Below, one piece after another: positions 2,737 through 49,618 of a stretch of DNA of 64,000 nucleotides. The notes under the pieces are model-generated. The model did no database searches, was not told the DNA's origin, and saw nothing but the letters and a program-made list of their open reading frames with translations. The position numbers were made by a program, and so were the translations under genes. Source of the stretch: Somniosus microcephalus (lineage: Eukaryota). Position 1 is the first letter of the stretch; every line of letters begins with the position of its first letter. The DNA is taken from positions 138,570,001 to 138,634,000 of the forward strand of contig JBMRGM010000035.1 of assembly GCA_052327205.1 (NCBI GenBank), written 5' to 3'.

Positions 2737-2915
2737 GATTTATATGACTCACTTTAAAAAGGGATCCGAGTGCGTAAATATATAAATTGTTTCCCCACCA
2801 CCCACTCACCTGATTGTCACTCTTCTGCCCCCCCGCTTACCTGAAGGCTGCTTGCTGGCGTCCCTCCTCTACCTCACCCAAGTGGTTACCAAGTGCAAGT
2901 TCAGATGGCGCTCAC

Positions 2916-3391
2916 CAATGTTCTCATTGAAACTTATAAATCTCATTGAAACTTATAAAATTCTAACAGGACTAGACAGACTAGATGCAGGAAGGCTGTT
3001 CCCGATGGCGGGGGAGTCCAGAACCAGGGGTAAGCCATTTAGGACTGAGATGAGGAGGAATTTCTTCACCCAGAGTGGTGAACCTGTGGAATTCTCTACC
3101 ACAGAAGACAGTTGAGGCCAATTCATTAAATATATTCAAGAAGGAGTTAGATATATTTCTTAAGGCTAAAGGGATATGGGGAGAAGGCAGGGACAGGGTA
3201 CTGAATTTGGATGATCAGCCATGATCGCATTGAATGGCGGAGCAGGCTCGAGGGGCCGAATGGCCTACTCCTGCTCGTATCTTCTATGTTCCCTTTAAGC
3301 TGCGCAGCCGGCTCACCGGCTTTAAATGCAATAAACCGCGCATGCCCGTTAAAGGGGCAATGCGGCCAAAAAAAATTTAGAGGAAACATTG
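2916..3391. mobile_element. hAT-type MITE (TIR CAATGTTC) carrying a CR1 insertion
   Basis: TSD GCGCTCAC/GTGCTCAC. Confidence 0.8.
2922..3290 (+). mobile_element. CR1 3' fragment inserted into a MITE
   Basis: LIETYKILTGLDRLDAGR, 3' UTR and tail. Confidence 0.9.
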
Positions 3392-19289: not shown

Positions 19290-22250
19290 TCAATAGGGGA
19301 GGAAAGAAAAACTGGAATTGTAAAACAAAAACGTAGAAAGTAAATTGGAAGGACAGAGGAATCAAGGAGGTTTGTCTGTACTAAATGGTATATACTTCAA
19401 TGCAAGGAGTATAGCGAACAAGGCAAATGAGCTGAGGGCACAGGTAGGTTCTTGGGATTATGATATAGCTTTTACAGAGACGTGGCTGAAAGAGGGGCAG
19501 GTATGGCAGCTCAACATTCCTGGTTACAGGATTTTCAGACGGGATAGAGGGGGAGGTAAAAAGGAAGGGGGGTTCGCGGTATTGATTAAAGAAACTATTA
19601 CAGCTGTGAGAAGGGATGATATGTTGGAGGGATCATCAAACGAGGCCACATGGGTTGAATTGAAAAACAAAAAAGGGGCGATCACACTGCTGGGAGTGTA
19701 CTAGACCCCCAAACAGTGAGAGGGAGATAGAAGAACAAATATATAGACACATTTCTGAGAAGTGCAAAAACTATAGGGCAGTAATAGTAGGTGATTTCAA
19801 CTACCCCAATATTAACTGGGATAAAATTAGTGTGAAGGGTATAGAGGGTGCGGAATTCCTAAAATGCATCCAGGAGAACCTTTTTAGCCAGTATGTAGCA
19901 AGCCCAACAAGGGAGGGGCAGTTTTGGATTTAGTTTAAGGGAACGAAGCTGGGCAGGTAGAAGGCGTATCAGTGGGGGAGCATTTTGGTGCTAGTGACCA
20001 TAATTCTGTTAGATTTAAAGTAGTTATGAAAAAGGACAAGGATAGACCAGGAATAAAAATTCTAAATTGGGGAAAAGCAAATTTTGCTAAGCTCAGGGGG
20101 GATTTAGCCATAGTGGACTGGAAACAGCTACTTGAAGGTAAATCAGTGTCAGAGCAGTGGGAGGCATTCAAGGAGATCCAGAGGGCTCAGGCCAAATATG
20201 TGCCCTTAAAGAAAAATGGTGGGACTAACAAATCTAGAGCCCCCTGGATGTCGAGACATATACAGGGTAGGATAAAGAAAAAAAGGGAGGCGTATGACAG
20301 ATACTGAGGGCTAAATACCCCAGAATCTTGAGGAGTACAGAAAGTGCAGGGGTGCAATTAAAAAGGATATTAGGAAAGCAAAGAGAGAGCATGAAAAATT
20401 CTTGGCAAGTAAAATCAAGGAAAACCCCAAAGATGTTTTATAAATATATTAAGAGTAAGAGGATAACTAAAGAAAGGGTAGGGTTAATTAGAGATCATGA
20501 GGGTAATTTGTGTGTGTGGAGGCGGGAGACGTCGGTAGGGTTCTTAATGAATACTTTGCGTCTGTTTTCACAAAAGAGAGGGGCGAAGCAGACATTGTTA
20601 TCAGGGGGGAGGAGTGTGAAATATTAGATGAAATAAACAGTGAGAGGGGAAGTATTAAGGGGTTTAGCAGCTTTAAAAGTGGATAAATCCCCAGGCCCGG
20701 ATGAAATGTATCCCAGGCGGTTAAGCGAAGCAAAAGAGGAAATAGCAGAGGCCCTGACCATCATTTTTCAATCCTCTCTGGCTTCAGGTGTGGTGCCGGA
20801 GGACTGCTAATGTGGTACCCTTGTTTAAAAAGGGAGAAAAGGATAGACCGAGTAATTACAGGCCAGTCAGCCTAACCTCGGTGGTGGGAAAACTATTGGA
20901 AAGAATTCCGAAGGACAGGATAAATCTTCATTTAGAAAGACATGGATTAATCAAGGATAGTCAGCACACATTTGTTACGGGAAGGTTGTGTCTGACAAAC
21001 TTGATTGAATTTTTTGAGGAAGTAACAAGGAGGGTAGATGAGGGTAGTGCGTTTGATGTAGTGTATATAGACTTTAGCAAGAATTTTGATAAGGTTCCAC
21101 ATGGCAGACTGGTCACGAAGTTAAAAGCCCATGGGATCCAGGGCAAAGTGTCAAGTTGGATTCAAAACTGGCTCGGAGACAGGAAGCAGAGGGTAATGGT
21201 TGATGGGTGTTTTTGTGACTGGAAGGCTGTTTCCAGTGGGGTTCCACAGGGCTCAGTACTAGGTCCCTTGCTTTTTGTGGTATATATCAACGATCTAGAC
21301 TTGAATATAGGGAGTATGGTTAAGAAGTTTGCAGATGATACTAAAACCGGCTGTGTGGTTAATACTGAAGGAAGCTGTAGACTGCAGGAAGATATCAATA
21401 AATTGATCAGGTGGGCAGAACAGTGGTAAATGGAATTCAATCCGGAGAAGTGTGTGGTAATACATTTGGGGAGGGCCAACAAGGAAAGGGAATACACATT
21501 AAATGGTAGGACACTAAGTAGTGTAGAGGAACAAAGGGACCTTGGAGTACATGTCCACAGATCCCTGAAGGTAGCAGGCCAGGCAGATAAGGTGGTTAAA
21601 GAAGGTATATGGAATGCTTGCCTTTATTAGCTGTGGCATAGAATACAAGAGCAGGGGGGTTATGCTTCAACTGTATAAAACACTAATTAGGCCTCAGCTA
21701 GAGTACTGCGTGCAGTTCTGGTCACCCCATTACAGGAACGATGTGATTGCACTAGAGAGGGTACAGAGGAGATTTACAAGGGTGTTGCCGGGAGTAGAAA
21801 ATCTTAGCTATGAGGAAAGACTGGATAGGCTGGGTCTGTTTTCCTTGGAACAGAGGAGGCTGAAGGGAGACCTTATTGAGGTGTATAAAATTATGAGGGG
21901 CATAGATAAAGTGGATAGAAAGGACCTATTTCCCTTAGCAGAGGGGTCAAAAACCAGGGGGCACAGATTTAAAGTAATTGGGGGAAGGTTTAGAGGGGAT
22001 TTGAGGGGAAATTTCTTCACCCAGAGGGCTGTAGGGGTCTGGAACTCACTGCCTGAAAGGGTGGTAGAGGCAGGAACCGTAACCACATTTAAAAAGTACT
22101 TGGATGTGCACTTGGGATGCTCTAACCTGCAGGGCTACGGACCAAGAGCTGGGAAGTGGGATTAGGCTGGATAGCTCTTTGTTGGCCGGCGCGGACACGA
22201 TGGGCCGAAATGGTCTCCTTCCGTGCTGTAACTTTCTATGATTCTATGAT
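19290..22250 (+). mobile_element. CR1-clade LINE, decayed ORF2 (APE endonuclease + reverse transcriptase)
   Basis: YFNARS..ETWL (APE), NYRPVSLTS, SGVPQGSVLGPLLF, KFADDTK, LEYCVQFWSP; several stops and frameshifts; ends in a (TTCTATGA)n tail. Confidence 0.95.
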
Positions 22251-22384
22251 CGATTCTCACACATCTAGAATCCTAGCTCCAGCTTCATATAAAACCAAAT
22301 GTGTTTGCTTTATTAACTGACCTGCCATTTATCATGGAGTAAAATGAGTTCATGCCGATACCAGTTTTAAGCTTATTTTTTCAC

Positions 22385-26769: not shown

Positions 26770-26938
26770 CGGAATGCGTGGTATTCCAAATCTGGGTTCC
26801 CAGATCAGTTGCATTAGTCTGCCCCTTGCAGCTCTCTTCAGGCTCGATGTTTGAAAGAGTCACCTTCTTTGACTGCTTTTTGGGGAAGCCGGGTAATGAA
26901 GGATGCAGAGAATCCATCGTGCAGATTTTAACAGCCTT
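26770..26938 (-). CDS. PRRC2A: PRRC2A exon
   Basis: KAVKI...LPGFPKKQ...DLGTQIWNTTHS (human HIWNRLHT); cag (NAGNAG) / gtacgt; phase 0 to 1. Confidence 0.8.
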
Positions 26939-28242
26939 CTGGTGAATGAAAAGCACATCACGCATTAGGGAGAATCAAGTACCATGAGCTACCCAACACA
27001 GGTATCACTCCGAATACTACATAGGCTTCTGCCTTACTGCCTGCTGCATGACCACGTCCCCCTCCACCTCTCAAACTCAGCTAGCAATCACAGCCTTCCA
27101 GCCCACTGGCATACAGCAGAGGGCTAAAGCAGCAAATCTTCTCTGCTCAAGGTTTCAGGTTCTACCCAACGCCGTCACCGTCATCTGCCAGTTTCAGATT
27201 CAGCCAGGAGGTCCAGACAATCTACCATAACTGCAGCAAGTTTTAAGCGGTTATATGTTGTGTGGCAACAAGGTAGTACAGAGTATCGCACCGTGGTACA
27301 GGTGTCTGTTCACTGCCCCCTAACAATCTCCCAGTCTCATATGTGCTGTTAGGCAAGGGTGGTGGTGTTTGGGGGGGGGGGGAAAAGAGAGAGCACGGGG
27401 AGGAAAGAGAAAGGAAAAACTAACTATCTCACCAGTGGAAAAAAATGTATTCACTCCTAGGATTACACTTGAGTATTTAAACAACCACAGGCTGGAGCCA
27501 GGGGTGAGGGGGGAAGAGAAGTTTTTTGGGGGGGGGGGTGGGGCAAGGAGCAGCTATTTCCCAGTTGTTGTAATTAAATGTGTCTGTTTTCTTGTTCCTC
27601 TATGTCTGCCTAGGCCTGGCAGCTATAGGCATCATCTTGGTCTCCACGGATTTTCCTGCGTGGCAGCCCCTCCAGTACCATGATGCAGCTCCAGGTAAAA
27701 CCCTGCAGATCTGTTGCCTTTCTTAAAACAATTTACCAACTCCACGGCAAAGAGCACGAATATTTGCCACGACTGGGTTTCAGACCACAGAGCAACAATG
27801 CTCCAAGTAGTGGGGCCACCTCTAGAATCTCCAACAAATACATCGATAACTAGATTCTCCCATTTCCCCAAATTTTCTGCCCTCTTTTTCTGAAGCCCTG
27901 ATCGATGCCAGGACATGATTTCGAAAACTAGCAGCCCCTCCAGTACCTCACTCAAGTGTTCCATTCTTCACACGTCAGTCTAGATGGTGGCTCCTTCACC
28001 ATGGAGTGTACTACAGCCAAGCATGATCTTGTCCTCGGCCATCTCCCACACATGTACATTTTCCACCAGGCAGCGCCAAGTAGGCATCGTAGCTGATTCC
28101 GCTCACCCTGCCCTCAGCAATGAGGCCATCTGCGGCCTCAGTGTCTTTACTCACTAAATCACAGAGGACACCCACCATCACCTGTTCTTATTTTTATACA
28201 CAGGCTGCACTCCCGACCAAGAGCCCGCCTCATTGCAGTCAC

Positions 28243-29466
28243 ATAGAAACATAGAAGATAGGAGCAGGAGTCGGCCATTCGGCCCCTCGAGCCTGCTCCG
28301 CCATTCAATGAGATCATGGCTGATCATCCAAATTCAGTACCCGGTCCCTGCTTTCTCCCCATATCCCTTGATCCCCTTAGCCTTAAGAAATATATCTAAC
28401 TCCTTCTTGAATATATTTAATGAATTGGCCTGAACTGCCTTCTGTGGTAGAGAATTCCACAGGTTCACCACTCTCTGGGTGAAGAAATTCCTCCTCATCT
28501 CAGTCTTAAATGGCTTACCCCTTATCCTTAGACTGTGACCCCTGGTTCTGGACTCCCCGAACATCAGGAACATCCTTCCTGCATCTAGTCTGTCTAGTCC
28601 TGTTAGAATTTTATAAGTTTCAATGAGATCCCCTCTCATTCTTCTAAACTCCAGTGAGTATAAGCCTAATCGACCCAATCTCTCTTCATAAGTAATTCCT
28701 GCCATCCCAGGTATCAGTCTGGTGAATCTTCGCTGCACTCCCTCCATGGCAAGAACATCCTTCCTCAGATAAGGCAACCAAAACTGCACACAATACTCAA
28801 GGTGTGGTCTCACCAAGGCCCTGTACAACTGCAGCAAGACAGCCTTGTTCCTGTACTCGAATCCTCTCGCTATGAAGGCCAGCATACCGTTTGCCTTCTT
28901 AACCGCCTGCTGCACCTGCATGCTTACCTTCAGCGACTGGTGCACAAGGACACCCAGGTCTCGTTGCACTTCCTTGTCCCAATCTATTGCCGTTCATATA
29001 ATAATCTGCCTTCCTGTTTTTGCCACCAAAGTGGATAACCTCGCATTTATCCACATTATACTGCATCTGCCATATTGCCCAACCTGTCCAAATCGTACTG
29101 GAGTTTCTCTGCATCCTCCTCACAGCACACACGTCCATCCAGCTTTGTGTCGTTTGCAAACTTGGAGATATTACATCTAGTTCCCTCGTCTAGATCATTA
29201 ATATATATTGTGAATAGCTGTGGTCCAAGGACCGATCCCTGCGGTACCCCACTAGTCACTGCATGCCACTCGGAAAAAGACCAGTTTATTCCAACTCTTT
29301 GCTTCCTGTCTGCCAACCAGTTTTCTATCCAAGTCAGTACCTTACCCCCAATCCCAAGTGCTTTAACTTTACACGCTAGTCTCTTATGCGGGACCTTATC
29401 GAAAGCCTTCTGAAAGTCCAAATACACCACATCCACTGGTTCTCCCTTGTCTATTCTACCAGTTAC
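28243..29466 (-). mobile_element. 5'-truncated CR1 LINE inserted at a PRRC2A splice donor
   Basis: RT fragment DFQKAFDKVPH..GVPQGSVLGP, C-terminal ORF 28334-28969, TTCTATGT tail. Confidence 0.95.
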
Positions 29467-29615
29467 CTGCAGCAGATGCTCTTCCTTTTTGCGACGCTCA
29501 TCGTCCAGGATTCTCTTCTGCCGCTTTGAAAGGACGCGGGTGAAGCCGTCGTTTAAGGGAGATATGGTCTCATCATCTGCAGAAACTGCTGGGTGATCAT
29601 CAATGATCACTACAC
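29467..29615 (-). CDS. PRRC2A: PRRC2A exon (PRRC2B/C-like segment)
   Basis: SVVIIDDHP...DGFTRVLSKRQKRILDDERRKKEEHLLQ; tag acceptor; donor gtaact abuts a CR1. Confidence 0.9.
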
Positions 29616-30585
29616 CTAAAATGTGGAACAAAAGATTTTTAAAAATTAAAACCACACGATGGCCCAAATGGCCTCCTTCTGTGCTGTTCTATGAGTCAAT
29701 GAAATAGAAAATCATGTCAGAGGGAGAAGAGGGGAGGCAAAGAGGGGACCAAAACACACCAACATGATGCAGATTACCAATGGCGTGGAGGCTTAGAAAC
29801 ACACACACACGATATACAAGTCACCCTTGGCACACTGTCATGTGTGCAAGCCCCTCTCCACAGATTTGAGCACATAACCTAAGCTGGCACTTTAGTGCAG
29901 CACTGAGGAAGAGCTGCACTACTTGAAGAGCAGGGGAGCACTCCCGGTGTCCTAACCAACATCTGTCCCTCAACCAACAGTGCTAACAGAGATTATCTAG
30001 ACATTTGTCTCATTACACACTGAAGTCCCACAAAGGGCAAACTAACTGCTGCTTTTGCCTACATTACAACAGTGAAAGGCACTGTAGAAGTACAAGTTCT
30101 TTCTTTCACATCGGGATTAAATGGCTTGTAACATTCTAGACTTTGCACTACATAGAAATTAAACTGAATGATGTCAGCTTGGTTCGATTGATGGCACTCG
30201 CCCCTGGGTGAGAAGATTATGAGGAAGAGCCGGGGAGTGGGACTAACTGGATTGCTCTTCGAAAGAGCCGGCAGAGACTCGATGGGCCAAATGGCCTCCT
30301 TCTGTGCTGTACTATTCTATGATTGTGGGTTCCAATCAAGGGTTGCGTGCATAATCTAGGCCGACTTTCCAGTGCAGTATTGACGTGCGCTGCCCTTTGA
30401 ACAAGATGTTAAACCAAGGTCTTACATGACTCTTGGAGGTTCTGGTGGAGATTAGAAATTGGAAGGTGCGCAAGTTTACCCACAATCCTTGCTACTAGTG
30501 ACCTCTGATGCCACAGAATGCCTTCTGCATTTGCTGATAACAGCTTTAAAGTAAGCAATTGTGTGAAGCATGAGAGATGGGATAC

Positions 30586-34637: not shown

Positions 34638-34772
34638 GAACATAAGAAATAGGAGCAGGAGTAGGCCATTCGGCCCCTCGAGCCTGCTCCGCCATTCAAT
34701 ATGATCATGGCTGACCTTCTACCTCAACTCCACCTTCTCACCCTATCCCTATATCATTCGATTCCCTTATCG
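34638..34772 (-). mobile_element. CR1 3' tail fragment next to the large-exon donor
   Basis: Same 3' UTR motif; similar short copies at about 4352-4510, 16195-16265, 16385-16465, 19010-19135, 55410-55630 and 61693-61825. Confidence 0.8.

Positions 34773-49345: not shown

Positions 49346-49618
<273 letters not shown>

Follow-up and report, generated by a model that had tools for sequence, protein, structure and literature searches.

Retrotransposons of the CR1 clade leave target-site duplications with lengths peaking at about 3-5 bp, and a route has been proposed in which truncated inserts with microhomology arise when a host 3' overhang, once freed, anneals to LINE cDNA that is still being extended (excerpts of PMC4245944). 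In coelacanth, species-specific CR1 copies of about 1 kb containing part of the reverse transcriptase (RT), some of them intronic, show duplications of 2-10 bp, two of these being 7 bp long (excerpts of PMC4255032). Intronic elements located less than 20 bp from exons are mostly found at donors, whose signal spans only about six intron bases, and most mammalian LINEs in the vicinity of exons are short and in antisense orientation, sense ones being depleted (excerpts of PMC3088655). In shark and ray genomes CR1-group elements make up 22-34% (excerpts of PMC13343379), so that a few landings of such a kind are to be expected.

We analysed a window of 64,000 nucleotides from Somniosus microcephalus (contig JBMRGM010000035.1, positions 138,570,001 to 138,634,000), in which a CR1 copy directly adjoins a splice donor of PRRC2A. 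The copy is similar to the CR1/L2-clade inserts assigned to the annealing pathway in its truncation and 5' microhomology, and probably in a short duplication with the host overhang as partner, but in the present case a splice donor would form the overhang, and 7 bp with one mismatch exceeds the 3-5 bp peak (compared with excerpts of PMC4245944). It likewise resembles the coelacanth copies, for which empty sites were available and the closest of which lies about 200 bp from an exon, whereas the shark copy lies at distance zero (excerpts of PMC4255032). In contrast to the mammalian LINEs near exons it is sense-oriented, 1.2 kb long and at distance zero (excerpts of PMC3088655). Introners are also tolerated through splice signals from the element or the target duplication, but they are for the most part DNA transposons and give rise to introns at new positions, whereas the LINE described here extends an old intron and has no acceptor role (excerpts of PMC11282704). 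Open-licence PMC/bioRxiv texts yielded no published account describing this locus or any CR1 directly abutting a donor, which is weak evidence of absence.

The PRRC2A exon and the adjoining CR1 copy

The minus strand of the window carries most of PRRC2A, as tblastn with the two closest proteins (P0001 and P0002) gave 29 matched stretches each in collinear order, and all exons detected agree with the relatives. For the large exon, identities of 78-89% were obtained with 13 cartilaginous-fish-type proteins, including one ray cluster labelled PRRC2A-like and one whale shark entry, followed by named PRRC2A proteins from coelacanth and amphibians at 48-54%, which rank above PRRC2B/C. By sequence similarity, the window gene classifies as a PRRC2A orthologue, nearer to PRRC2A than to PRRC2B/C. 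The features of the locus are compiled in the table; in sequences a slash marks the exon boundary.

Table. Features at the PRRC2A exon and CR1 junction (window coordinates).
Feature	Position	Strand	Evidence
149-nt coding exon of PRRC2A, phase 1 to 0, with EEHLLQ (CAG) at its end	29467..29615	-	tblastn with P0001/P0002, relatives' models
Present donor GTAACTG, being both the first intron bases and the first CR1 bases; likely left copy of a target duplication	29460..29466	-	sequence, family reads, U1 duplex
LINE-borne candidate cryptic donor GGG/GTAAGGTA, 121 nt beyond the exon end; would shift the frame	29339..29349	-	U1 duplex -9.7 kcal/mol, prediction
Intron retention: exon frame continuing into 136 RT codons, stop at 29058	29056..29466	-	translation
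5'-truncated CR1 in gene sense: end of ORF2 with frameshifts, 3' UTR and tail	28241..29466	-	RVT_1, alignment of window copies
CR1 tail (TTCTATGT)2, its final GT doubling as the GT of the distal 7-mer	28241..28256	-	sibling copy, family reads
Distal GTGACTG, likely right duplication copy (inferred old donor); preceded by TAT, predicted inactive	28236..28242	-	sequence, U1 duplex
Next PRRC2A exon, opening with KAVKIC, phase 0	26770..26938	-	tblastn, relatives' proteins

The exon boundary EEHLLQ/KAVKIC is well reflected in the relatives, all 68 protein models passing from that Q into the next exon with KAVKIC (49), KGVKIC (9), KAGKIC (8) or a sequence lacking the K (2); these models comprise the proteins of the 13 closest entries plus listed cluster members and are isoforms from about 15 assemblies, i.e. 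not independent cases. The two models missing the first K can be set beside a CAG AAG acceptor at 26935-26941 (-), which permits a 3-nt shift. A metagenome scan returned no shark orthologue of the PRRC2A locus but three distant paralogous PRRC2C-like loci, and in all three the corresponding exon closes with a Q codon and the next bases are GTA, indicating that the intron position is old, as the relatives' proteins imply as well. For this reason we rejected the CR1 copy being an introner. The PRRC2C-like exons (L001-L003) are vertebrate sequences within a metagenome collection, presumably representing host DNA. About 45 nt upstream of the acceptor of the 149-nt exon, an antisense retroposon tail fragment (TTCTATGA on the plus strand) is located at 29655-29700, so that together with the CR1 at the donor retroposon remains flank this exon on both sides.

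At its downstream end the exon closes with CAG at 29467, and the first intron base is also the first base of the CR1, which starts with GTAACTGGTAGAATAGAC (29466-29449). The initial annotation had described this gapless passage into CR1 ORF2 (VTGRID) with coordinates that we confirm, as 29466-29059 translates into VTGRID and onward and matches Pfam RVT_1 with an E value of 3e-16. The copy shares 71% identity over 1230 alignment columns with the window copy 32753-31562, and substitutions relative to its two nearest window copies amount to 3.7-5.2%. Its RT relatives at 70-93% include proteins from ray, bamboo shark and elephant shark, followed by turtle and bird proteins. RT, tail, truncation and copy number identify the element as a CR1-clade non-LTR retrotransposon, the clade name being one which we presume from the tail structure.

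The tail is a short tandem repeat lacking poly(A), which is common to a sibling copy in the window and to family reads; the final 16 bases of the sibling (61010-60995) are identical to those of the focal copy. Reads of other CR1 copies continue beyond 28241 with a further tail unit, and past the tail of the focal copy the sequence reads GACTGCAATG. The family is abundant, with more than 86,000 records per run in all four runs examined out of 24 listed. The window itself contains 17 CR1-related pieces; only the focal copy touches an exon, the next-nearest piece being 19 nt away from an exon-end coordinate. In the intron following the large exon, whose candidate donor is GAG/GTGTGT, a short CR1-type 3' fragment (34639-34766, -) is located at a distance of about 19 nt from the exon. 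We also observed an antisense CR1 of about 3 kb from a different subfamily (19301-22260, +) with a TTCTATGA tail and 31% substitutions to the focal copy, and a copy at 2915-2960 (+) whose 5' end is preceded by the ~19 bases with which it begins, repeated nearly in tandem, as from a template jump. A CR1 pattern search gave no matches in the genome_contigs and viral_contigs collections.

Junction anatomy and route of insertion

Reads from other CR1 copies depart from the window sequence at 29466 and continue upstream with GAGGAT on the gene strand in four out of four runs, bearing out the 5' truncation claimed at the outset. GAGGAT also precedes GTAACT in window copies and in CR1 proteins, showing that the join is sharp and has no homology on the exon side. 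At the other end of the element, at an offset of 1224 nt, lies the distal GTGACTG, identical to the present donor GTAACTG at six of seven bases. Both the offset and the match had been reported in the initial annotation and are correct, but the distal GT belongs to the tail as well, whose units normally end in GT, and the near GT is needed in any surviving donor. Thus, only AACTG versus GACTG, i.e. four of five bases, counts as independent.

Within the window, 1.9% of 5-mers match at four of five positions. Among 1204 7-mers of the LINE only two reach six of seven matches to GTGACTG, and the junction 7-mer is the only one of these with a paired 3' end, its mismatch being a G:T wobble. GT occurs as a start at 68 positions within the LINE, and given GT the chance of such a match is about 1.5-3%. 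The six-of-seven match therefore appears to exceed chance, though moderately and for a case chosen post hoc, and the direct repeat at both CR1 ends is a likely candidate for a target-site duplication as judged from the sequence. The sibling copy 61529-60995 (-), which carries internal deletions relative to the focal copy and has no exon within 1.4 kb, is bounded by ATCT on either side, the CT at the 5' join belonging to the LINE as well. The same junction anatomy is thus present at an ordinary intronic site. This sibling is the only one of six other CR1 copies inspected that showed a clear duplication.

This suggests a model, which we consider probable, according to which the CR1 was inserted through ordinary target-primed reverse transcription, giving a duplication of about 7 bp starting from the donor GT, so that the donor would have been kept and not rebuilt. 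The first nick would fall where the exon meets the intron, with the primer end base-pairing to the GU in the tail of the RNA, and a second nick about 7 nt inside the intron would free the host overhang. Of all 7-mers in the 1.2 kb of cDNA copied, this overhang would anneal to the one matching it best, thereby setting the truncation point, and the old intron together with the second 7-mer copy would be shifted by 1224 nt and lose its exon side. As the duplication would begin at the donor GT, the donor would stay in place whichever strand supplied a given base, and by the annealing route the matching bases would be the host's own duplicated overhang, preserving the donor by construction. The tail ending in GT, the exon side lacking homology and the junction 7-mer being one of so few good matches all argue for this model. 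Joining by microhomology, as proposed initially, is likewise the likely route. Against the model, the left copy should retain the host G at +3 in its plain form, which requires one extra event, and 7 bp exceeds the usual peak of CR1 duplications. The chance rate of the four-of-five match, the post hoc choice of the case and the single clear duplication among the six other copies count against it as well.

The only base capable of distinguishing host from LINE is +3, which is A in both other window copies covering it, and only this A is attributable to the LINE. The G at +7 was considered as a host-derived marker and dropped: the closest CR1 relative, P0318 (93%), has G, as does the distal copy; among 18 CR1 proteins of at least 75% identity, out of 237 covering the start, 16 have S or R and one has G at this position. 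For the empty site we distinguish three sub-cases, ranked by judgement and not by computation. CAG/GTGACTG is the single likeliest empty site; in this sub-case (CAG/GTGACTGCAATG), to which we give the first rank although somewhat less than an even chance, a 7-bp overhang was used and the G:T mismatch was settled as A. The second, rather unlikely, has the old donor reading GTAACTG (CAG/GTAACTGCAATG) with a perfect 7-bp match and a later A-to-G exchange in the distal copy, meaning that the LINE would have left the donor unchanged. The divergence of 3.7-5.2% from the nearest siblings sets the prior for such an exchange at a few percent. On the other side, six candidate PRRC2A donors lack G at +5, five of which have A and none of which has G at +3, and the three paralogous donors all read GTA, favouring GTAACTG over the first-ranked sub-case.

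In the third sub-case, which we regard as possible but doubtful, GT alone would be duplicated or shared and the LINE would supply everything from +3 onward, the truncation point giving, by chance, a good donor once joined to CAG. This agrees with +1 to +7 matching the CR1 sequence and with the A at +3 in the other window copies, a 2-bp CR1 duplication is tabulated in the coelacanth data (excerpts of PMC4255032), and selection would retain only joins leaving a donor. However, the further match of ACTG would have to be luck, as only one or two of the 68 GT starts equal it, and it extends to the C at +5, a non-consensus base not to be expected from selection for a good donor. A deletion of the old donor plus some intron, in which the LINE replaced the donor outright and the distal GTGACTG is unrelated intron, is improbable. 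Target truncations by LINEs are known (excerpts of PMC4245944) and the tail alone accounts for the distal GT; yet such a deletion demands a usable donor at the join plus the four-of-five chance match, and the distal 7-mer placed after CAG equals the present donor in U1 pairing.

Donor strength, assembly and predicted splicing

Donor strength was taken as the predicted duplex energy with the U1 motif, which is a crude proxy. The present donor pairs at -8.0 kcal/mol, the inferred empty site, i.e. the distal 7-mer placed after CAG, at -8.1 kcal/mol, and the distal site in situ at -1.4 kcal/mol, on which ground the distal GTGACTG was rejected as a competing donor. With a duplication from GT likely keeping the donor and only +3 differing, the initial wording of a donor being recreated and a disruptive insertion being rescued is overstated; rescue fits only the duplication of GT alone or a target deletion. 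The energies of 26 candidate PRRC2A donors range from -5.1 to -12.5 kcal/mol, these having been selected partly by the same U1 score and with the exon end 59385 omitted as unclear. The present site is thus predicted to be an ordinary donor with neither gain nor loss. The sequence CAG/GTAACT recurs at 49411 (49404-49414, -), where it contains the sole GT near that exon end and no adjoining CR1 piece was found.

We consider it very improbable that the junction is an assembly error, or that it is real and splicing is disturbed by cryptic LINE donors, exon skipping or read-through into the RT. Among the contigs listed for four of 24 listed runs, none bridges 29466/29467, this stretch being swamped by other CR1 copies. 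At the 3' junction, a contig of run X3, which may be related to the source of the window, matches 27508-28263 with no other letters and one gap; it enters the tail, arguing against a misassembly, but reaches no more than 23 letters into the LINE, short of the 31 letters set for bridging. No empty-site joint was present among those listed in runs X4 and X11, which had been chosen as relatives by word share and have little or no depth on unique DNA, their word share likely stemming from repeats. Matched ends and an in-phase GT would be improbable products of a misjoin. As to disturbed splicing, three LINE sites (29346, 28928 and 28519) pair with U1 better than the present donor. Against this, all window exons match the relatives, and skipping of the 149 nt would shift the frame. 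Splicing from 29467 to 26938 is predicted to continue unchanged. In the RNA run X21, of which about 24% was read, the two exons had a depth of 0.5-1.7, and the 15 joints listed (456 more exist) included none between exons, which speaks neither for nor against use of the donor. The insertion would alter no protein and needs no new mechanism.

Meaning of the locus for sharks and CR1 elements

The finding is real and mechanistically ordinary, representing a known mechanism at a rare position. Given the depletion of sense LINEs near mammalian exons (excerpts of PMC3088655), the survival of a 1.2-kb sense LINE that directly abuts an exon of a conserved gene is unusual. The locus illustrates the donor side being made forgiving by target duplication or microhomology, it provides a clean presence/absence marker, and it suits a minigene test of why a donor beats stronger cryptic sites close by. 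A more far-reaching reading, which we put forward tentatively and think unlikely, is that a sense LINE swapped the intronic half of a constitutive donor of a conserved housekeeping gene in one step, only the GT being host-derived and +3 onward being RT coding sequence that U1 now reads, with the resulting donor outcompeting stronger cryptic donors of the same LINE. Should a genome-wide excess of such joins exist, joining by microhomology together with selection would be a route for CR1 elements to rewrite shark splice donors.
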